From assembly GCA_045605805.1 (NCBI GenBank), contig JAZUQR010000027.1, positions 160,001 to 224,000 of the forward strand: a DNA stretch of 64,000 nucleotides. The letters are read 5' to 3'. Below, in pieces: positions 25,967-35,939 of this stretch (positions within the stretch are counted from its first letter, which is position 1; every line of letters starts with the position of its first letter). The notes below the pieces were generated by a model. The model had not been told where the DNA came from, ran no database searches, and saw only the letters and a list, made by a program, of their open reading frames with translations. This DNA comes from Alphaproteobacteria bacterium. Its GTDB lineage: Bacteria; Pseudomonadota; Alphaproteobacteria; CAAHEQ01; UBA3637. The translations under genes and the position numbers were made by a program.

Positions 25967-26092
25967 AAAAATCCTTTCTGTCATTTGAAATATGTACACC
26001 ATTATAGAAACATTTTGCAATTTTGTCAAATACCTTGACTTTTTAATCAATTTTTGATACAATCCCGAATAATTTCAATAAAGGAGAAGAAA

Positions 26093-27856
26093 ATGAAAAT
26101 GACATATGATGAATTGCGCACATTGTGGTTGGATTTTTATAAATCAAAGCAACACAGCGAAATCCCATCGGCCTCTCTGTTGCCGGAAAATGATGCCACA
26201 GTGTTGTTCACAACGGCAGGCATGCACCCATTGGTTCCCTATCTGATGGGAGAAAAACATCCGGCCGGCAATCGTTTAACCGACATTCAAAAATGCATCC
26301 GCACAAATGATATTGCCGAAGTGGGCGACCATTGTCATTTAACATTTTTTGAAATGATGGGCAACTGGTCATTGGGGGATTATTTCAAAAAAGAAATGAT
26401 TGAATGGAGTTTTGAATTTTTAACTCAAAAATTGGGATTCAAGCCCGAACAATTGGCCGTCACCTGCTATAAAGGCGATGAAAACACCCCAAAAGACGAA
26501 GAAGCAGCCGCCATTTGGCACTCTTTGGGCTTAAAAGACAATCAGATTTTCTTTTTAGAAGATAACTGGTGGGGCTTGGCCGATGGGGGGCCATGCGGGC
26601 CGGATACGGAAATGTTCATTGACAACGGCAAACCAGCCTGTGGCCCAGCATGTAATCCATCTTGCAACTGTGGCAAATACACCGAAATTTGGAACGATGT
26701 ATTTATGCAATACTTAAAGAAAAAAGACGGTACATTAGAACCGCTGTCTCAAAAGAATGTGGATACGGGAATGGGGTTGGAACGCACACTTGCTTTCTTA
26801 AATGGCGAAGGCGATGTATTTATGACAGAATTATTTGAAGAATCTCGCTTGAAATTAGAAGAAATCAGCGGTAAAAAATATACTGATAATTTGGTGCCAT
26901 TCCGCAAAGTGTTAGACCATTTACGCACAGCAGTGTTCATTTTGGGGGATGATAAAGGCATTCCACCAAGCAACACTGATCAAGGTTATGTTTTGCGGCG
27001 TCTTATCCGCATTGCCATCCGCAACTTAAAGAAATTGGATGTCACCGATTTTGTTTTGGCCAAATTAGCGGAATCTGTTGTGAATAAATATAAAAAATAC
27101 TATCCGGAATTGGAACGCAACAAAGCCTTTATTATGGCTGAATTGGAAAAAGAAGAACAATTGTTCAACCGCACAATTACAGCCGGCTTAAAAGAAATGG
27201 ATAAAGTTCTGAACCGTGTTCAAAACAACCTGATTGATGGACAAACCGCTTTTCATCTGTATGACACCTATGGCTTTCCATTAGAGTTCACCCAAGAAAT
27301 TGCCGCAGAACATAATGTTCAAGTGGATGTGGAAGGGTTTAACAAATGCTATGAAGCCCACCAAGAACTGTCCCGTAAAGGGGCCGAACAAAAGTTCAAA
27401 GGCGGCTTGGCTGACCATTCTGAAAAGTCTGCCCACTATCATACCGCCACACACATCATGCACGCCATGTTGCGCCAAATGTTTGGGGAGACAGTGGCCC
27501 AAAAGGGAAGCAATATCACACCCGAAAGAATGCGCTTTGACTTTTCGTTTGACCGCAAGATGACCCCCGAAGAAGTGGCCGAATTGCAAGCCAAAGTCAA
27601 TGCAGTCATTGAACAAAAGATTCCTGTTGTCTGTGAAGAAAAAACATTGGATGAAGCCAAAGCCGAAGGGGCAATCGGGTTATTTGCCCATAAATATGAT
27701 GCAGAAAAGGTAAAAGTCTATACCATCGGCACAGTATCCAAAGAAGTCTGTGGCGGGCCTCATGCCCAAAACACAGGCGATTTAGGACATTTTCGCATCT
27801 TAAAAGAAGAATCTTCTTCGGCCGGTGTCCGTCGCATCAAAGCAGTGTTAGAATAA
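26093..27856 (+). CDS. alaS: Alanine--tRNA ligase, short form lacking the C-Ala domain
   Basis: LFTTAGM, HLTFFEMMGNWSLGDYFK, DTGMGLER, editing motifs HTATH and CGGPH; ends at GVRRIKAVLE. Confidence 0.96.
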   Translation: MKMTYDELRTLWLDFYKSKQHSEIPSASLLPENDATVLFTTAGMHPLVPYLMGEKHPAGNRLTDIQKCIRTNDIAEVGDHCHLTFFEMMGNWSLGDYFKKEMIEWSFEFLTQKLGFKPEQLAVTCYKGDENTPKDEEAAAIWHSLGLKDNQIFFLEDNWWGLADGGPCGPDTEMFIDNGKPACGPACNPSCNCGKYTEIWNDVFMQYLKKKDGTLEPLSQKNVDTGMGLERTLAFLNGEGDVFMTELFEESRLKLEEISGKKYTDNLVPFRKVLDHLRTAVFILGDDKGIPPSNTDQGYVLRRLIRIAIRNLKKLDVTDFVLAKLAESVVNKYKKYYPELERNKAFIMAELEKEEQLFNRTITAGLKEMDKVLNRVQNNLIDGQTAFHLYDTYGFPLEFTQEIAAEHNVQVDVEGFNKCYEAHQELSRKGAEQKFKGGLADHSEKSAHYHTATHIMHAMLRQMFGETVAQKGSNITPERMRFDFSFDRKMTPEEVAELQAKVNAVIEQKIPVVCEEKTLDEAKAEGAIGLFAHKYDAEKVKVYTIGTVSKEVCGGPHAQNTGDLGHFRILKEESSSAGVRRIKAVLE

Positions 27857-27861
27857 ACCCA

Positions 27862-27890
27862 AAAGCCCCGTTCAAACGGGGCTTTCATTT
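27862..27890. terminator. Intrinsic terminator after alaS
   Basis: AAAGCCCCGTT-CA-AACGGGGCTTT. Confidence 0.85.
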
Positions 27891-27904: not shown

Positions 27905-28060
27905 CTATCTATCTTTCTTTTTGGAAAAATCCACATGGCGCATATAGCGGTGATGTTTAGCCTTCACAACATTTTCAAAAACAAGCGCACCACCTTTGTA
28001 TAAACCAGAACCACCCAAGGCAATCAAAGCCCCAAGGAACATAATTTGATTTAAGTTCAC
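27905..28060 (-). CDS. Unannotated 51-aa single-TM protein (MNLNQIMFLGALIALGGSGLYK...KKKDR)
   Basis: Translated by hand: GTG start overlaps the upstream TAG (TAGTG), AGAGGAAG RBS, hydrophobic N-terminus, basic tail. Confidence 0.6.
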   Translation of the reverse strand: MNLNQIMFLGALIALGGSGLYKGGALVFENVVKAKHHRYMRHVDFSKKKDR

Positions 28061-28716
28061 TATCTTCCTCTATGATGTTTTTGTGCCTGGTATACACATT
28101 GGGCTTTATCTGCTTCTGCCTGACGCTTGTGAATATCTGTAAGAAGACCCTTCAAATACGCTTCTCGTTGAAAAGGCAATTTATTATGGTTCTTTTTTCT
28201 AAATTGTGCATCTTCCTTCCAAATCGTTTCCATTGTTTCAGCAATTTTCAGATGCCTCTGTTTTTGCGCCAAATGTACATTCGCAACGCCTTCGTTTTCG
28301 GCATTATACATTGCTGCATTGGCACATTGGATGCGAGATATTAATGAATCTTTCACCCAATCACGGCCATAATTTTGAGTCCCTTCTATATACGTTCTCA
28401 AATCATTCAAATAGTCTTTATAACACTTCACTTGCATCTCATTACAAAAAACAGCCTTTTTGCGAATATCCCATAAAGTGCTGGATTCATTAATTGGTAA
28501 TTGCCAACCAGCCTCTTCACCATAATTGTAAATACGTTCTGCTATAATCTGTCGCTTTGCTTCTTCCTTGCGTTCAGCGGCCCTCCCTTTGCCGACTGCA
28601 CAGACACCACCGGCAACAATAGAACTAAGAGCAACAGTCAAACCAACCGTTTTCAGTTTGGCAATTGTTTGTTTCTTTTTAAGTTTTGCATGATCTACCG
28701 CTGTTCCAAAAGGCAT
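28060..28716 (-). CDS. Hypothetical protein with N-terminal membrane anchor
   Basis: 218-aa ORF, AGGAGG RBS, upstream TTGACA-N17-TATAAT; basic C-terminus QKHHRGR. Confidence 0.75.
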   Translation of the reverse strand: MPFGTAVDHAKLKKKQTIAKLKTVGLTVALSSIVAGGVCAVGKGRAAERKEEAKRQIIAERIYNYGEEAGWQLPINESSTLWDIRKKAVFCNEMQVKCYKDYLNDLRTYIEGTQNYGRDWVKDSLISRIQCANAAMYNAENEGVANVHLAQKQRHLKIAETMETIWKEDAQFRKKNHNKLPFQREAYLKGLLTDIHKRQAEADKAQCVYQAQKHHRGR

Positions 28717-28812
28717 ATTTTGTTCCTCCTGTTAAAAATTGCATCTGTAGATAAATTATACCATAAAACAAAATTTTTGTCAATTTTAGCCCTTTTTGAA
28801 AAGTAAATAAAA

Positions 28813-28847
28813 GAAAAACAACCTATGTATTTCAATAGGTTATTTTG
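28813..28847 (-). terminator. Hairpin/terminator immediately beyond the outermost CCGCCA core (probable original tRNA terminator)
   Basis: AAAACAACCTAT...ATAGGTTATTTT with a T tract on the - strand, 4-5 nt from the core at 28852. Confidence 0.55.
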
Positions 28848-28851
28848 AAAG

Positions 28852-28884
28852 TGGCGGGCAATGCTGTGCATAATGGGAACTCAT
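28852..28884 (-). repeat. Cassette end site R, copy 1, including the CCGCCA core
   Basis: TGGCGGGCAATGCTGTGCATAATGGGAA identical to 29713-29740; 32 of 33 bases match over the extended repeat. Confidence 0.95.
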
Positions 28885-29482
28885 TTAATTGTCTGATTTT
28901 TCGTATTCTCAATATTTTTATTTACTTTATAGATATAGTATGTATCATATTTGGAACCTAAGGAAAACTCCTTTTTTGGTTCCATATCTGGAATTGGAAA
29001 CCGATTGACATAAAGAAGGGTACTTTTTTTTGCTTCTGTTTGACATTTAGTGCTGATTTTTTTCATTAAGTGGGATAATAAAAATAAAAATATAATATCA
29101 GCTTTGGATATATCTGCGTTAAAGAAATTTTGACGATAAAACTCGATATTTTTCATTTTTCTGGCTCTAAATCTACTAACTAAATAGGGAACCACCCATA
29201 TTCAATTCCAATAAACTTGTGCTGTGGAAATTGTTGCGCCAAGGGTAAAAGTAAGGTACCCCAACCGCTTCCCAAATCCATTATGGTTTGATTTTTTCTT
29301 TTCTCTAAAAGTTGAGCAACATTTTTTAACATAGCCCTTTTAACTTTTCCACTTGATGGAACAGGTGGTGCATTGCGCATAAAACTGGAATTAAAAGCAA
29401 AATAGATGGTTATTATTCCCACACAGAATATAACTAACATTAATAAAGTTTGCAATAACACCAACAAATAAATAAGAACCAT
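28881..29482 (-). pseudogene. Frameshifted class I SAM-dependent methyltransferase with N-terminal TM (FAM173-like)
   Basis: ORFs 29180-29482 (TM, PPVPS, MDLGSGWG, FIGIE) and 28881-29195 (NFF, ADIIFLF) join into one fold if one base is restored near 29192. Confidence 0.8.
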
Positions 29483-29523
29483 ATATCCTTATCCTTCCGT
29501 GTTAATTTATAAAATTTTTTACT

Positions 29524-29718
29524 AAAATGTTCGAATGTCGGTAAGGGTTCCAAACAGCGTTAAAAATGTGAAATGTAATAAATTCAAGCGCTTACTGCGT
29601 TATCGGTTCGATTGTTGAAAAAGTATGTGCTTTTTGACCAAACAACATTTGAACCAGCTTAACATATTGAAAACAAAAGAAAAAGTCGCTATTTTAAGCG
29701 ACTTGTTCACTTTGGCGG
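29524..29718 (-). repeat. Cassette arm L, copy 2 (~195 bp)
   Basis: Colinear with 31763-31958, about 80% identity by manual alignment. Confidence 0.95.
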
Positions 29719-29745
29719 GCAATGCTGTGCATAATGGGAAGTCAT
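29713..29745 (-). repeat. Cassette end site R, copy 2, including the CCGCCA core
   Basis: 28-bp exact match to 28852-28879. Confidence 0.95.
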
Positions 29746-29777
29746 CTAGAGCATTTTGATACATAAAAGGTCTTAAC

Positions 29778-31691
29778 TCAACCTCCTGCCTGTGGGGTAT
29801 TTTGTCCTTTTAAAATAGAAAGAGGAGGTTGTTTTTTATTTGAAAGCGATCTTTTATCAGCACTTTTGGAAAGCATTTGTATTAAACCGGATTTACCTGT
29901 ATTATTCCCAGACTTCTTATGCGACTTAACGGAAGAAGTTAAAGGACTGTTTTCTGGAAATCTATCAATATTCTCCTGACTGATAATCGGCTTCCCATAT
30001 TTGTCCTTTAATGACATAAGGATAGGTAATTGTTCAGCATAATCTGAATGTGCCTGAATAAGACTTTCTAACAATATATTCTTTCCTTCTTTTGTATCAA
30101 AAGTCTTACGGGAAAGTGGTAGATTTCCTTTTTCATCTTTAATTGCATCAAATAATAATTTAATTTCTTCCTTGCAATTTTTTCCTCTACTTATGTCTCG
30201 CACCCAAATATCCAATGCTTTAGCAAATTGTTCCTCTCTAACAAGTACCTTTCCATCACGACCTGTTAATTTTAGTATTTGAGGAAGTAATGGAAGCATT
30301 TTAATCCAGTCCTCATCGTAAGGACCGAAATGTCCCAAAAACACATTCCTCGTGTTATCAAAAGAGGCTCGTAAATCTTTTTCTATAAGGGGTAGACGTC
30401 CTTCATCATCTGAAAGAATAGCAACAGACTTTTTAAAATCTTCTGGAATCTTTGTTTTAAAAGACAATATATTCGCAATATTTTCTGAAGTCGCTATTTT
30501 TTCACCATCACGAGTAGCCTCAACTAGGTACTTTAATGCAGCGGGACTAATAATTTGCTGAATACCACAACCTTTAAAAAGATCTCTAACTTTTTCTATA
30601 TTAAATACATATTGAGAATCAGTTCTTTTCAATGTCAATATATCGTGAATCTGTGCTGGTGAAGCATTTTCCAATATGTATCCTAAAACCTCTTCATAAT
30701 CCTTGGGCATTTTTTCATCAACACCATCATGTAAAAGACGTATATATTCATCCAGATGGTTATTCTTTTTGGCTTGCAATAACTTTCCTCGAAAACGTCT
30801 AGCTCTTCTAGGGGCTTCTTGTAATTTTTTCATCAAACTTTGTGGTAAGTGAAATACCTCTGGAATACAATCTAAACCTGGATCATTTTCCCCAATTGGA
30901 GCTCTCATATCATATAAATCTTTATAAGGACTACCATATACTCTATCTAATATGGCACTTATCGCCTCTTCTTCAATTTTTTTATCACCTCTATGGCTCA
31001 CATCATTTGCGTGTTTTTTTAATATTTCTTCATACGTTTTAACCCCAGTCATTTTAGTATCATCTGTATGACCAAAAATTTCATAATAAGCTCGCGCACC
31101 GGTTTCAAATGCTTGTGCTTCTGATAAAAATTCAAGCTGATGCCAAGCATAGGCATTTTCTATTGGAATTCCAAAAAACGAAGCATTCATCATACGTTCT
31201 TCCTGATGATAGGCAGCCTCATCATTTTGTTCTGCGTGTTTGAGTTCATGTGATAATACTAAAACTAAAAAATTAAGATCATCCACCTTTTCAAAAACAA
31301 CCTTATTGTCCATCGGTCCATATGAAGCCGCAGATTTTGCCTCCTTATCTCCGTTATTTCTTTCTCTGACTATTGTAGTGTCAATTATGAGAGGGTTCGT
31401 ATCTTGACGAAAGGTTGAAAATTTATGATACAAAGGTGTTTCCTTACCATTCAGTTCATAAATCAATTTTAAAGCCTGTTGAACCTTTTGTTCTCTTTCG
31501 CTTAAATTTAATTTTGGATTATTCGGGTAATCTTCTGGATATATAAACTCACGAATAGAGCATGTTTTTATTTTGCTTTTTAACTCTTTTGCTCTTTCTT
31601 CATCTATAAAACTATGTTCAAGAAGATATTGCTCCTCTTCTGTCAATAAAACCCCATATGACACTTTTATCATATCCATTGAATTTTCCAT
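29778..31691 (-). CDS. Hypothetical 637-aa protein with HExxH zinc-metallopeptidase-like domain and C-terminal degenerate repeats
   Basis: VLSHELKHAEQ followed by EAQA; recurring [L/I]xDxxGxxx[I/L] units; AAGGAG RBS. Confidence 0.7.
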   Translation of the reverse strand: MENSMDMIKVSYGVLLTEEEQYLLEHSFIDEERAKELKSKIKTCSIREFIYPEDYPNNPKLNLSEREQKVQQALKLIYELNGKETPLYHKFSTFRQDTNPLIIDTTIVRERNNGDKEAKSAASYGPMDNKVVFEKVDDLNFLVLVLSHELKHAEQNDEAAYHQEERMMNASFFGIPIENAYAWHQLEFLSEAQAFETGARAYYEIFGHTDDTKMTGVKTYEEILKKHANDVSHRGDKKIEEEAISAILDRVYGSPYKDLYDMRAPIGENDPGLDCIPEVFHLPQSLMKKLQEAPRRARRFRGKLLQAKKNNHLDEYIRLLHDGVDEKMPKDYEEVLGYILENASPAQIHDILTLKRTDSQYVFNIEKVRDLFKGCGIQQIISPAALKYLVEATRDGEKIATSENIANILSFKTKIPEDFKKSVAILSDDEGRLPLIEKDLRASFDNTRNVFLGHFGPYDEDWIKMLPLLPQILKLTGRDGKVLVREEQFAKALDIWVRDISRGKNCKEEIKLLFDAIKDEKGNLPLSRKTFDTKEGKNILLESLIQAHSDYAEQLPILMSLKDKYGKPIISQENIDRFPENSPLTSSVKSHKKSGNNTGKSGLIQMLSKSADKRSLSNKKQPPLSILKGQNTPQAGG

Positions 31692-31762
31692 AATGTTCTC
31701 CTTTTTTTATCACACTAACATATTTTAATGTGATTTACAACACAAATGGTGTAATCACTCAA

Positions 31763-31958
31763 AAAATGTTCGAGTGTCAGTAAGGGTTTCAAACAGTGTC
31801 AAAAATGCGAAATGCTTTAAAATCAATCGCTTACTGAGTTATCGGTTCGATTGTTGAACAAAGTATGCCTATTTTTCCTGCTTAACAATCGAACCGCCTT
31901 AAACCATTGAAAATAAAAGAAAAAGTCGTCATTTCTGACGACTTGTTCACTTTGGCGG
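31763..31958 (-). repeat. Cassette arm L, copy 1 (~196 bp), abutting the tRNA 3' end
   Basis: Contains a terminator hairpin, a 13-bp perfect inverted repeat CGGTTCGATTGTT/AACAATCGAACCG and IHF consensus AATCAA-TCGC-TTA. Confidence 0.95.
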
Positions 31959-32041
31959 AGCGTACAGGATTTGAACCTGTGCATCCCTTTAACAGGATGA
32001 CGGATTAGCAATCCGCTGCATTACCACTCTGCCAACGCTCC
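31953..32041 (-). tRNA. tRNA-Ser(GCT)
   Basis: GGAGCGT/ACGCTCC acceptor stem, anticodon loop TTGCTAA, long variable arm, TTCAAAT T loop, G discriminator, encoded CCA; TTGACA/TATTAT promoter upstream. Confidence 0.97.
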
Positions 32042-32107
32042 TGACATGTGATAAAGTCATAATACCAAAAAGACCTTGCATTGTCAAGTCTTTTTAATAA
32101 AACCAAA

Positions 32108-32675: not shown

Positions 32676-34613
32676 TTACCACAAGTTCAACGATTGGCTC
32701 TCACTTATCTGTTTCACAACAGCAATAAAATCATCTAATGGCAAAGCATTTTTTTGTTGACCTGTTCGATCCCGAACGGAAACAGTATTGCTTTCAATTT
32801 CCTTATCCCCCACAATCACAGCATAAGGGATTTTGGCATTATGCGCTTCCCGAATCTGATAGCCGATTGTGTTGGATTGACGCTCCATCTCGGCCCGAAT
32901 CCCCACAGATTTTAATTTTTCCAAAATCTGTGCAGCATAATCCCGATGTTTATCCGAAACAGGCAATAAACGCACTTGAACAGGCGAAATCCATACAGGG
33001 AAAGCACCGGCAAAATGTTCGGTCAACACCCCCATAAAGCGTTCCAACGAGCCATAAATAGTCCTGTGAATCACAACAGGTGTTTTTTGCGCCCCGTCTT
33101 TATCAATGTATTTACAGCCAAAGCGACCAGCCAATTGGAAATCTAATTGGAAAGTACCTGTTTGCCACTCACGCCCCAAAGCATCCTTCATGGAAATATC
33201 CACCTTTGGCCCATAGAAAGCCCCATCTTTATCTTTAATGGCATAGTTTCCTTCCCCACAATGTTTATCCAAAATCCGCTTCAAAGCAGCCTCTGCCCGA
33301 TTCCAAGTTTCCACATCTCCGATAAAATCATCCGGACGGGTTGAAAACTTCATTTCATATGTCAAACCAAACAAGTTATAAAACTGATCAGCCAAAGCAA
33401 ACAGTTTTTCATATTCTTCCTCAATCTGATCTTCTGTAATAAAGATATGGGCATCATCTTGATGGAACTCACGCACACGCAATAAACCATTCAAAGCCCC
33501 ACTGGCTTCGTTGCGATGAATCATATCTACATCAGAAAAACGAATGGGCAAATCTTGATAAGAACGAGTTTTTAAGTTGAATAACAGCATGGTTGAAGGG
33601 CAACTCATCGGTTTCAAAGCATACACTTCATTTTCTCCCATATCAGCAGCTGTTAAAAGATACATATCGTCTTTATAATGCGACCAATGGCCGGAAGTTT
33701 CCCATAAAACTTTTGAGTTCATCAACGGGCCAGCAAACTCTTGATAACCGTTTGCTTCATGAACTTTGCGCCAATAATCCAACAAAATGTTGTACATTTT
33801 TAAGCCTTTTGGCAACCAATAAGGGCAACCTGGGGCTGTTGAATCAAAATAAAATAACTCTAACGCTTTACCAATTTTACGATGATCTCGCTTTTCGGCT
33901 TCGGCCAACAATTCAAAGTAAGCCTTTAATTCCTTTTCGCTGAAGAAAGCCGTTCCATATACACGTTGTAAAGAGGCCTTTGTAGCATCTCCCCGCCAAT
34001 AAGCAGCCGCCACTTTGGTCAGCTTAAAAGCCTTACCGATTAAACCGGTACGAGGCAAATGCGGCCCACGACACAGTTCCACATAATCCCCCTGAGTATA
34101 GATGGAAACCTCTTTCACATCCTCAGGCAAATCATCAATCAATTCTACCTTAAACAATTCCCCACGGTCGGTAAAAATCTGTCGGGCCGTTTCACGTGAA
34201 ACAACCTGGCGTTCAATAGCCAAATCAGCCGCCACAATCTCGGCCATCTTGGCTTCAATTTTTACCAAATCATCTTCTTTCAAAATAATGCCATGAAAAT
34301 CATAATAAAAGCCGTTTTCAATGGCCGGCCCAATAGTGGCTTTTGCATTTGGATATAAAGCCTCCACCGCTTGAGCCAAAGTATGTGCTGTGGTGTGACG
34401 CAACATTTCCAAAGCCTCAGGGGTTTTTTGTGTCACAATAGAAACAGTTGCGTTGGTTGTGATGGGCGTCATTAAATCAGTAAGTGTGCCGTCCACAATG
34501 GTGGCAAGGGCAGCTTTGGCCAAGTTCATACTAATTTTTTCGGCAATTTGAAGGCCGTTCACCGGTGCTTCAAACGGCATTTTAGAGCCATCAGGCAACA
34601 TAATTTCTATCAT
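32676..34613 (-). CDS. thrS: Threonine--tRNA ligase
   Basis: TGS domain, LRHTTAH, LCRGPH, RDHRKIG, TSGHW, GAFYGPK, GSLERF. Confidence 0.97.
   Translation of the reverse strand: MIEIMLPDGSKMPFEAPVNGLQIAEKISMNLAKAALATIVDGTLTDLMTPITTNATVSIVTQKTPEALEMLRHTTAHTLAQAVEALYPNAKATIGPAIENGFYYDFHGIILKEDDLVKIEAKMAEIVAADLAIERQVVSRETARQIFTDRGELFKVELIDDLPEDVKEVSIYTQGDYVELCRGPHLPRTGLIGKAFKLTKVAAAYWRGDATKASLQRVYGTAFFSEKELKAYFELLAEAEKRDHRKIGKALELFYFDSTAPGCPYWLPKGLKMYNILLDYWRKVHEANGYQEFAGPLMNSKVLWETSGHWSHYKDDMYLLTAADMGENEVYALKPMSCPSTMLLFNLKTRSYQDLPIRFSDVDMIHRNEASGALNGLLRVREFHQDDAHIFITEDQIEEEYEKLFALADQFYNLFGLTYEMKFSTRPDDFIGDVETWNRAEAALKRILDKHCGEGNYAIKDKDGAFYGPKVDISMKDALGREWQTGTFQLDFQLAGRFGCKYIDKDGAQKTPVVIHRTIYGSLERFMGVLTEHFAGAFPVWISPVQVRLLPVSDKHRDYAAQILEKLKSVGIRAEMERQSNTIGYQIREAHNAKIPYAVIVGDKEIESNTVSVRDRTGQQKNALPLDDFIAVVKQISESQSLNLW
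34188..34203. promoter_or_regulatory. parS site inside thrS
   Basis: CGTTTCACGTGAAACA, 15/16 match to the parS palindrome. Confidence 0.75.
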
Positions 34614-34724
34614 TTTTTTCCTTTTGTTATTATTAAAGTCAAACAACCCCTGTTTGACAACAACAAAATTATAGCATCTTTTTCGTTAAAAGTCAAAGAG
34701 TTTATGATTAAATCAGGCTCTACT

Positions 34725-35939
34725 TTAGACAGAACGCCCTTTGGATTTTACCTTATTATCCAACACAACAATTTTGTTGTCTTTGGTCACATGATAGGTG
34801 GGCAAACGGCAACAATCCGGCACAGGGATTTCAATAAAGACATTTTTGCCCATAAAAGAGAGTAAATTAAACTTTTCTTGAATGGGATCCAGATATTCTT
34901 CATGTAAAGCCGTATGTTGCTTATAGGGTAAAAAGACAATGTTATTGATATCATTATTACCCCCAAAAGCAAGAGGAATCACATGATGGGCGGTTAAATC
35001 TTGTTGGGTGTCAGTTGTATCAGAATGAAAAAATAAATTAAAATCACCCCGCAAACCACAAGCCTGCAAAAACTGCAAACGGTTCTGGTTAAAATCATAT
35101 CGGCGTATTTTTTTTTCGGCCCCCGATACAAAATCAGCCTTTACAATTTGCATACTCATATTTTCTGGAACAACCGGTTTTTTATGCAAACTCAATAAAA
35201 TCCCTTTTTTGAATTGTTGGCTGATAACCTTATTGCCCAATTTTGAACGCCAATTTGCTTTATTTTGAAAAACTTTTTCATAAGCAGCTCTATCAGTAGC
35301 CGGTACAAAATCCAAAAAAGCCTCGTTTGTAAAAACACAAGGAAGGGACGGCATATAAAAACCCAGTTTATGTGTAAAATCTTTTTCTTGTAAAAACTTG
35401 TCCTTACAATTTTTAATCACAGACCAATAAGTTTCATCCATAATTTCGGCCACATCAGACGAAACCACATACATATTAGAAGTATCCAAAGTACCACCTA
35501 ATTCCAAAGGAATGCGAAAATCAACCATATAATTTTTGGGTAAATGACCTGTTTTTAACGCAATAGCCTTGTCTTTTTCCGAAAAAATACCATCAAAACA
35601 ATGTCGTGTGGCCAAGCGTCGCACAAAAAGATTAGCCTGTTTTTTGAATTGTTGAATATGAAACTTTTTAACAGAAGTTTCTTTTTCCCCAACAACTGTT
35701 TCCGTTAAATAAACAGTCTGGGGATTTTCCTTAAAATACTTATTATCTTGGCAAACAAAATGAAGCATCAGATTCTTAAACTTATCAGTTGTCTTGCGAA
35801 TTTGGGTATCTTTCACCCAAGTGGACATTTTTTTTTGAATTTCAGATTTTGCCTTATTCTTGGAAAAAACAACTAATTCCATAACATTTTCATTGTTTTT
35901 TTTATGCCGAAAATCGCCTTTTTTTTTATAATTTTTCAT
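34725..35939 (-). CDS. HNH endonuclease-domain protein with a degenerate N-terminal HNH copy
   Basis: C-terminal AHHVIPLAFGGNNDINNIVFL...H...H; N-terminal paralogous VDFRIPLELGGTLDTSNMYVV. Confidence 0.75.
   Translation of the reverse strand: MKNYKKKGDFRHKKNNENVMELVVFSKNKAKSEIQKKMSTWVKDTQIRKTTDKFKNLMLHFVCQDNKYFKENPQTVYLTETVVGEKETSVKKFHIQQFKKQANLFVRRLATRHCFDGIFSEKDKAIALKTGHLPKNYMVDFRIPLELGGTLDTSNMYVVSSDVAEIMDETYWSVIKNCKDKFLQEKDFTHKLGFYMPSLPCVFTNEAFLDFVPATDRAAYEKVFQNKANWRSKLGNKVISQQFKKGILLSLHKKPVVPENMSMQIVKADFVSGAEKKIRRYDFNQNRLQFLQACGLRGDFNLFFHSDTTDTQQDLTAHHVIPLAFGGNNDINNIVFLPYKQHTALHEEYLDPIQEKFNLLSFMGKNVFIEIPVPDCCRLPTYHVTKDNKIVVLDNKVKSKGRSV

Follow-up and report, generated by a model that had tools for sequence, protein, structure and literature searches.

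How does a bacterial chromosome come to hold unrelated genes, stacked one behind another at the end of a tRNA gene, between the same two end sequences and with no integrase among them? The question is raised by a stretch of 64,000 nucleotides, here called the window, from contig JAZUQR010000027.1 of an alphaproteobacterium, in which two such units follow the tRNA-Ser(GCT) gene, each opening with a long left arm (L) and closing with a short right end (R). Comparison of the locus with the rest of its genome, with its genus and family and with metagenome contigs indicates, at a probability of roughly 60%, that the units are integrative cassettes flanked by attachment (att) sites and lacking an integrase, which are kin to the integrase-bearing tRNA islands of the same genomes and are moved in trans by a tyrosine recombinase. 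Specifically, the units have exact boundaries, empty sites exist, the arrays vary, the same cargo stands behind different tRNA genes, no recombinase is encoded in cis and L carries conserved motifs.

The locus is read on the minus strand throughout. The tRNA-Ser(GCT) gene (31953..32041; Rfam score 63 bits) ends in CCGCCA (31953-31958), and the L arm of unit 1 (L1, about 31763..31952) starts directly behind these six bases. Cargo 1, an open reading frame (ORF) of 637 amino acids (29778..31691), is followed by the right end R1 (29713..29748), the exact 28-mer of which (29713-29740) again ends in CCGCCA. Directly after it come the L arm of unit 2 (L2, about 29524..29712, with a hairpin at 29683-29704), a class I S-adenosylmethionine (SAM)-dependent methyltransferase gene split over two ORFs (28881..29482; ORFs 29180-29482 and 28881-29195) and the right end R2 (28852..28887; exact 28-mer 28852-28879, ending in CCGCCA), behind which the terminator hairpin of the native tRNA flank (28813..28851) closes the array. 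The original prediction, made from the letters of the window alone, had described two stacked units with shared ends and unrelated cargo behind the CCA end of a tRNA-Ser gene, and this is what the analysis found, with lengths of 2240 bp for unit 1 and 861 bp for unit 2. The exact 28-nt R occurs twice in the window with 0 mismatches between the copies (0 occurrences expected from shuffles) and can be extended to 36 nt at 94% identity, and the two L arms, each of about 190 bp, are 81% identical over about 196 nt, in agreement with the proposed identity of R over 28 bp and likeness of about 80% in L. The claim that only the last 6 nt of the tRNA are duplicated also held, as the core measures only 6-7 nt. 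The GC content of units 1 and 2 (0.34 and 0.32) lies below that of the window (0.41) and of the flanking genes thrS and alaS (0.42-0.43), which marks both units as foreign in composition.

The boundaries of the insertion can be read from relatives that lack it (handles beginning with G, C and X denote genomes, contigs and metagenome runs, and L with three digits denotes a locus; G000 is the genome of the window). In the related species G005, the CCGCCA of the tRNA is joined directly to a hairpin homologous to window positions 28851-28813, which is the empty site that had been foreseen, namely the tRNA CCA followed by the hairpin at 28813-28851. BLAST aligned this empty site to the window in two parts, the tRNA at 97% identity and the CCGCCA of R2 with 38 nt of native flank at 82%, and the two alignments overlap on CCGCCA; the insert therefore spans 28852-31952, a total of 3101 bp with CCGCCA at both ends. 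Only these first 38 nt past CCGCCA are demonstrably common to G005 and the window, and the 218-aa ORF past the array shows no similarity by BLASTP to the 217-aa ORF at the same place in G005. Because the tRNA-proximal hairpin is of the L type and the G005-type hairpin stands at the far end of the array, the crossover is placed between CCA and the hairpin and not behind the hairpin; the hairpin after the last R is itself often L-like. A second pair of filled and empty sites comes from the tRNA-Lys(TTT) locus of this genome (C21), which is the empty form of metagenome locus L066, where the order is tRNA-Lys, an L-GNAT-R unit and the same hairpin as stands after tRNA-Lys here. Together with this tRNA-Lys gene, the tRNA-Ser(GGA) and tRNA-Ser(CGA) genes of this genome are without L and represent empty forms.

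An alignment of 36 L copies reveals an arm with a fixed internal order. Its first element is a terminator-type hairpin (31923-31944 in L1), in which pairing is kept through compensatory changes; one pair, for instance, is C-G in 26 copies and U-A in 9. This is followed by an almost invariant inverted motif pair, GTTCGATTG and CAATCGAAC (31879-31896 and 31843-31860 in L1), and by an equally conserved third motif, CAYTCGAAC, near the 3' end (TCGAAC at 31768-31773 in L1). The near-invariance of the TCGAAC motifs argues for recognition by a protein, not for mere structure. Additionally, L contains a site of the form YAA-N4-YTGATTT with conserved flanks and variable Ns (YAA-N4-TTGATW at 31821-31833 in L1), which we take to fit the consensus of integration host factor (IHF). 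No strong sigma-70-type promoter was seen in L, readings by eye as extracytoplasmic function (ECF), sigma-32 or sigma-54 promoters failed on spacing, and neither L nor R matched an Rfam family at E<=1. The 32 distinct R sites share a common frame and are mostly preceded by TAG; a Ser type runs ...TGCACAG-N5-CCCGCCA and a Lys/Arg type ...TGCAAG-N5-CCCTCACCA, so that the last bases vary with the target tRNA, and in two variants 15-16 nt of true tRNA-Ser 3' end take their place. Taken as one piece of about 225 bp, R plus CCA plus L matches an attP site in size and layout.

L and R are by no means confined to this locus, and its content differs among relatives, two outcomes on which the original prediction had staked itself. 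The genome of the window (1.21 Mb in 31 contigs, 98.9% complete) holds five L copies, two of them in the window and the others at C7:1009-1199, where L directly follows tRNA-Ser(TGA), at C27:2079, after a sequence with CTCACCA as its end, and at C21:130157. Its third R, at C1:373-402, is the right end of the tRNA-Ser(TGA) unit, inside the gene of which contigs C7 and C1 break. The L copies on C27 and C21 outside the window (loci L004 and L005) are preceded by a common segment of about 130 nt (C27:1873-2003 and C21:130028-130154, 92% identical) that holds three TGTGATAC repeats, and on C27 a 73-nt piece ending in CTCACCA is inserted between this segment and L.

Within the genus, L and R matches were found in 19 of the 20 other genomes. 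The thrS-tRNA-Ser(GCT) locus or parts of it could be compared in 15 genomes of the genus, this one included: L stands behind the tRNA or in an array in 12, the site is empty in two (G005 and G003) and it is occupied by an integrase island in one (G013), and both cargo and array size vary. Arrays at this locus consist of one or two units where a contig holds both ends, and family-wide they range from 0 to 3 units; the tRNA-proximal segment of G011 is without L. Across 80 genomes of the order, whose only family is this one of small-genome gut bacteria, a strict L pattern that had matched 21 of 21 known copies gave 50 matches in 26 genomes and 6 of 16 genera, with 0 matches for the reversed control. 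Further L-gene-R units with other cargo, as anticipated, are present in this genome, in its genus and in five further genera. In metagenome contigs, 19 of the 23 places found by the pattern hold L by the L profile; the four others (L053, L054, L061 and L063) and a single match in a viral contig (L068) had no L by profile and were treated as chance.

About 70 L copies were examined in all, and partial copies also occur. Among 38 unique full-length copies, 24 are directly preceded by a tRNA CCA end and 12 by an R-type ...CCA end, with one preceded by neither and one unclear. The tRNA genes in question number at least eight, namely Ser(GCT), Ser(TGA), Ser(CGA), Ser(GGA), Lys(TTT), Glu(TTC), Met(CAT) and Arg(TCT). 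The proposal that cassettes are added at the tRNA 3' end was therefore right about the insertion point and too narrow in naming tRNA-Ser as the target. A separate search for additional occurrences of tRNA 3' octamers was rejected, as chance matches dominated its result.

The cargo is diverse, and at the thrS-tRNA-Ser(GCT) locus it changes from genome to genome. In the window, the product of cargo 1 contains an HELKH motif and has a weak, sub-threshold match to DUF6782, a putative metallopeptidase family. For unit 2, the methyltransferase had been identified correctly, but it is not a single intact gene, being broken by a +1 frameshift near 29191; since a contig of the public metagenome run X3 has one more C at this place and an intact frame, the frameshift reflects either a recent pseudogene or an assembly error. 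The stop codon of this cargo (28881-28883) lies in R as claimed if the 36-nt extended repeat is considered, but just outside the exact 28-mer, and such an overlap is not general among relatives. Elsewhere, units carry a GNAT acetyltransferase, a periplasmic binding protein, an M20 peptidase, a histidine phosphatase, a radical SAM protein with a tyrosyl-tRNA synthetase (TyrRS), a chromate transporter, MBOAT/AlgX and many ORFs without known family. They hold one or two genes each, on the opposite strand in several units (L031, L025, L022 and the C7/C1 unit of this genome). In G091 (L070:6319-8001), tRNA-Ser(GCT) and L are followed by a 414-aa and a 215-aa ORF without known family and then by a C-5 cytosine DNA methylase, a cargo that may be of the restriction-modification or defence type; the 414-aa ORF looked by eye like the N-terminus of an integrase and was rejected as such, having no Pfam or NCBIfam match.

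Some units have counterparts behind other tRNA genes. The Ser(GCT) gene of G015 and the Lys(TTT) gene of L066 are each followed by a GNAT unit; the two units are 83% identical over 817 nt, and their homology opens 3 nt past CCA and stops 27 nt short of the stop codon. The L066 unit closes with an R of the other type, ending in CCCTCACCA, and CTCACCA is common to this R and tRNA-Lys. Another unit, whose 323-aa ORF lies on the opposite strand, stands behind Ser(CGA) in G014 and behind Ser(TGA) in the present genome, and here the homology ends at the last base of R. Contigs of four gut or faeces metagenome runs (X1-X4) were also aligned to the window, with parts they leave uncovered not taken as evidence of absence. 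X3 contains pieces nearly identical to unit 2 and to the 218-aa ORF, and unit 1 is represented in X1 and X2, where the identity is about 93-95%. In one contig of X1, position 27885 is joined to 29676 and unit 2 and the 218-aa ORF are omitted, and a joint of 29586 to 31890 in X3 has just 25 letters on its shorter side.

Which enzyme, then, could move such units? Family searches of the whole genome gave no match to tyrosine recombinases, serine recombinases, Y1 (HUH) transposases, IS110 or rve in the window, and so bore out the observation that the 64 kb contain no integrase, resolvase or transposase; the nearest PF00589 match on the same contig lies outside, at C27:104490. Recombinase and transposase families are likewise absent from the 52 cargo ORFs searched (28 and 24 in two batches), and an autonomous element with a recombinase between L and R, which the original prediction had hoped for, was not found among the units examined. 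Taken overall, the interpretation given by the original prediction is supported in part. The idea of trans-mobilization stands in so far as these units contain no recombinase, while the class and identity of the acting enzyme, together with a circular intermediate and activity at the present day, are what we infer. All 21 genomes of the genus encode tyrosine recombinases, comprising two Xer-like enzymes and, in many genomes, island integrases, and 18 of the 21 encode serine recombinases.

The island integrases deserve particular attention. In this genome, two of about 590 aa lie behind tRNA-Thr(GGT) and tRNA-Glu(CTC), and in G013 an island with a 587-aa tyrosine integrase occupies tRNA-Ser(GCT), the very site that holds L-R units elsewhere. 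All three islands begin right after CCA with a terminator hairpin of their own, and a 16-nt repeat of the tRNA 3' end forms the far boundary of the tRNA-Thr island. Moreover, the genome contains the motif AGTTCCC(N)ATTWTG in its strict form three times, each time at a right end (the two R copies and the tRNA-Thr island); only this strict form was used, because a loosened form gave 10 matches against 4-12 in shuffled sequence and so occurs at the chance rate. At the level of genera, L and the island integrase family occur together in five, L alone in one, the integrase alone in one and neither in nine. Since their ends are like those of the integrase islands, the units appear to be satellites of, or derived from, ordinary integrative elements that target tRNA genes, and not a separate capture machine.

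Two further observations concern such elements in the same genome. The tRNA-Thr(GGT) island (G000 C21:75762-101703; L089 and L091), about 25 kb long, encodes a 593-aa tyrosine integrase and two serine recombinases and carries triple GTGTAACAC repeats; its 16-nt att repeat is present in two copies 145 bp apart, which leaves a tiny cargo-less unit at its end. On C8, two tRNA-Pro(CGG)-like ends (14347 and 15392; L092) are separated by 1045 bp and both run on into the same terminator hairpin, with the gene of a 574-aa large serine recombinase at a distance of about 1 kb, and on C3 a similar end is found 2.4 kb behind tRNA-Pro(CGG); other families of ends may therefore exist at other tRNA genes.

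The available data are compatible with a model in which each unit would be an attL-cargo-attR element, with L as the long and R as the short arm of one attP-like site, R-CCA-L. Units would enter by conservative site-specific recombination, with the crossover in the last 6-7 bases of the tRNA gene. L would then supply a new terminator to the tRNA, and the old terminator would be pushed to the far end of the array. A new unit could integrate at the tRNA or at an R-CCA junction, and tandem arrays would result. The enzyme would most likely be a tyrosine recombinase acting in trans, with the integrase family of about 590 aa from the tRNA islands of the same genomes as the best candidate, and would presumably be helped by a DNA-bending protein and by a factor binding the TCGAAC motifs.

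Several results weigh against this model. No recombinase could be connected with L or R, L is free of the arm repeats found in the islands, GTGTAACAC, and several L-bearing genomes show no island-type integrase, namely G014 (91% complete), G019 (94%), G091 and G023 (98% each); in G014, the only candidates are two Xer-like tyrosine recombinases and one large serine recombinase. Both relatedness and the general abundance of mobile elements in a genome confound the co-occurrence of L and integrase among genera. Classical tyrosine integrases require overlap regions that are identical, and a core of 6-7 nt that changes with the target does not sit easily with this. In addition, neither a circular junction nor excision was observed in the X1-X4 contigs, where R|L junctions, one of them with a variant R in X3, are indistinguishable from a tandem array. 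Near-identical L copies occur with different cargo, and the GNAT units have L and cargo in common but not R; from this loose linkage of L and cargo and the mismatch in R it follows that recombination other than the proposed crossover must occur, and the unit mosaics point to such extra recombination within or between units. Finally, aminoacyl-tRNA synthetase genes, which are of the housekeeping type, are found inside L-R units, tyrS in G012 (L026:6075-7316) and a trpS-type gene in G083 (L078:4040-5035, a 331-aa class I enzyme of the W/Y type). In G022 and G015, tyrS stands directly after tRNA-Ser(GCT) or after an array, and the order tRNA-Ser(GCT)-tyrS is seen in another genus; the synthetase genes in L-R units perhaps represent a capture of adjoining genes.

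A more far-reaching version of the model takes up this last point. It holds that the family possesses a living, trans-driven system of gene capture, in which one shared recombinase, island-borne or chromosomal, would dock at the tRNA CCA end and the terminator, many tRNA genes would serve as array heads, units would be swapped between tRNA genes and genera, and flanking genes, aminoacyl-tRNA synthetase genes included, would be taken up via secondary R-like sites. We regard this wider scheme as a tentative possibility, rather unlikely to hold in full.

It is less likely still that the units are relics, that is, full-size integrase islands that were internally deleted and became fixed scars without ever having moved as cassettes. 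The islands do use the same insertion point and the same design of CCA followed by an own hairpin, and they have a right-end motif in common with R; stop codons in some island integrase genes, the frameshifted methyltransferase cargo and the partial L copies all have the look of decay. Remnants and tandem integrations at tRNA genes have moreover been described for tycheposons (10.1101/2020.12.28.424599). Against this, L is a distinct and conserved 190-bp family without the arm repeats of the islands, the same small unit stands behind different tRNA genes, and independent decay would not have produced about 70 copies with the same two ends, a size of roughly 0.8-3.5 kb and never a fragment of an integrase. 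L is also conserved better than core genes between genera.

This conservation bears on another improbable explanation as well, according to which a dedicated recombinase does not exist and L serves as a transferable module for termination and regulation. Once DNA has been taken up, homologous recombination or gene conversion would exchange the units, with the conserved tRNA gene and the L copies as the homology. Between genera, L reaches up to 94% identity compared with 66-77% for core genes, and the matches cover the tRNA and L only, not the cargo; L must therefore be either strongly constrained or exchanged on its own. Such uncoupling of L and cargo is what homologous exchange would give, and the GNAT units with their different R, the L-bearing genomes without island integrases and the L-like hairpins after the last R fit it too. 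What it leaves unexplained is the first insertion exactly after CCA at eight unrelated tRNA genes, with a repeat of 6-7 nt matched to the tRNA, and the near-invariant L motifs that resemble protein sites.

Movement as a single strand by an HUH enzyme of the IS200/IS605 type, or by bridge-RNA IS110-type or Xer recombinases acting on hairpin ends and short target words, is in our view very improbable, for although insertion exactly 3' of a short word, the subterminal hairpin at the left end, the lack of long repeats and the status of the Xer-like enzymes as the only tyrosine recombinases common to all 21 genus genomes would suit it, a Y1 transposase (PF01797) occurs in only 1 of those 21, the present genome (98.9% complete) has 0 matches to IS110 (PF01548), no rve domain and a single reverse transcriptase, inspection of the R alignment showed no two-armed palindrome of the dif type (the dif of this genome was not located), and Rfam contains no RNA family matching L or R.

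Read on the minus strand, the locus begins with thrS (32676-34646), followed by a 147-aa ORF without known family between thrS and tRNA-Ser(GCT) and by the consensus promoter of the tRNA gene, of the sigma-70 type (TTGACA-17-TATTAT, minus strand, 32059..32087). Past the array, the first gene is the 218-aa ORF, also without known family, on the minus strand with a consensus promoter at 28755-28783 (28060..28783 in total), and beyond it lies the convergent alaS (26054-27856). The alaS ORF encodes only 600 aa, with the catalytic and second additional domains present; bacterial alanyl-tRNA synthetases are typically longer, at about 870 aa. Beside thrS, an ORF of 404 aa (34725-35939) encodes an HNH endonuclease domain and matches, below threshold, the C-terminal domain of a type VI secretion system immunity protein (Tdi1). 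ARAGORN found a permuted transfer-messenger RNA in this genome, a form typical of alphaproteobacteria.

Among the systems most like the units are tRNA-targeting islands with tyrosine integrases, including those of this genome with integrases of about 590 aa. They have in common with the L-R units insertion at the tRNA 3' end, a short direct repeat at the far boundary, precise empty sites and tandem stacking, and in both the element itself supplies the sequence right after CCA. The units differ in being without an integrase, in holding only one or two genes, in a core of 6-7 nt as opposed to 16 nt in the tRNA-Thr island, in the motif set of L and in that one family of ends serves at least eight tRNA genes. 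Cis-mobilizable elements (CIMEs), which together with the tandem integrations and remnants of tycheposons come nearest in concept, are flanked by att sites, lack an integrase, occur in tandem with related elements and are thought to depend on the integrase of the latter; they have been described as deletion derivatives beside a specific integrative and conjugative element (ICE). The L-R units resemble them in having both att sites and no recombination genes, but constitute a separate, large and conserved family that extends over six genera, and a partner element was not found for them.

The likeness to integrons drawn by the original prediction is an analogy only. Integron cassettes also form arrays of mostly single-gene, unrelated units with sites between them, a fixed head site and no recombinase inside. 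In contrast, no intI or attI accompanies the present array, upstream of whose tRNA lie thrS and the 147-aa ORF, and the boundaries take the form R-...CCA|L and do not lie in a conserved 7-bp attC core. A long conserved site lies 5' of the cargo, the cargo occurs in either orientation where integron cassettes have a single one and share a promoter, each L begins with a terminator and a genome has many head sites. The L-R units are not members of the integrons. Integrative mobile elements exploiting Xer (IMEX) and pdif modules are integrase-less and stackable, have short recombination sites and are moved by host recombinases, but the target of the L-R units is a tRNA end and not dif, they possess a 190-bp accessory arm and no dif-type palindrome, which would be a 28-bp site with two inverted 11-bp arms, was seen in R.

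Tycheposons of Prochlorococcus encode their own integrase and use partial tRNAs as att repeats; as far as the source describes them, they resemble the L-R units as cargo elements at tRNA genes of streamlined genomes, with successive integrations separated only by a partial tRNA copy and with remnants that build up islands (10.1101/2020.12.28.424599). On the same description, the L-R units depart from them in having no integrase, a conserved arm of 190 bp and a repeat of only 6-7 nt (15-16 nt in two variants). A limited literature search surfaced no description of such units, and whether they are already in print cannot be said. New in relation to the systems compared is a conserved two-end family without an integrase, with one or two genes per unit and a 6-7-nt core, at the CCA ends of at least eight tRNA genes and in six genera.

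The anatomy is unusual, as one conserved 190-bp arm and an end of about 30 nt serve at least eight tRNA genes with just 6-7 bases matching the target, and it raises the question how a recombinase could target tRNA CCA ends in general. For practical purposes, L and R provide a simple sequence signature by which such cassettes can be spotted in metagenomes. The genomes of the family have a reduced size of 0.7-2.0 Mb. The units, if mobile, may represent a main route for the gain and exchange of single genes in this lineage, and the genes at stake would include enzymes, transporters, a putative metalloprotease, methyltransferases and extra aminoacyl-tRNA synthetases.

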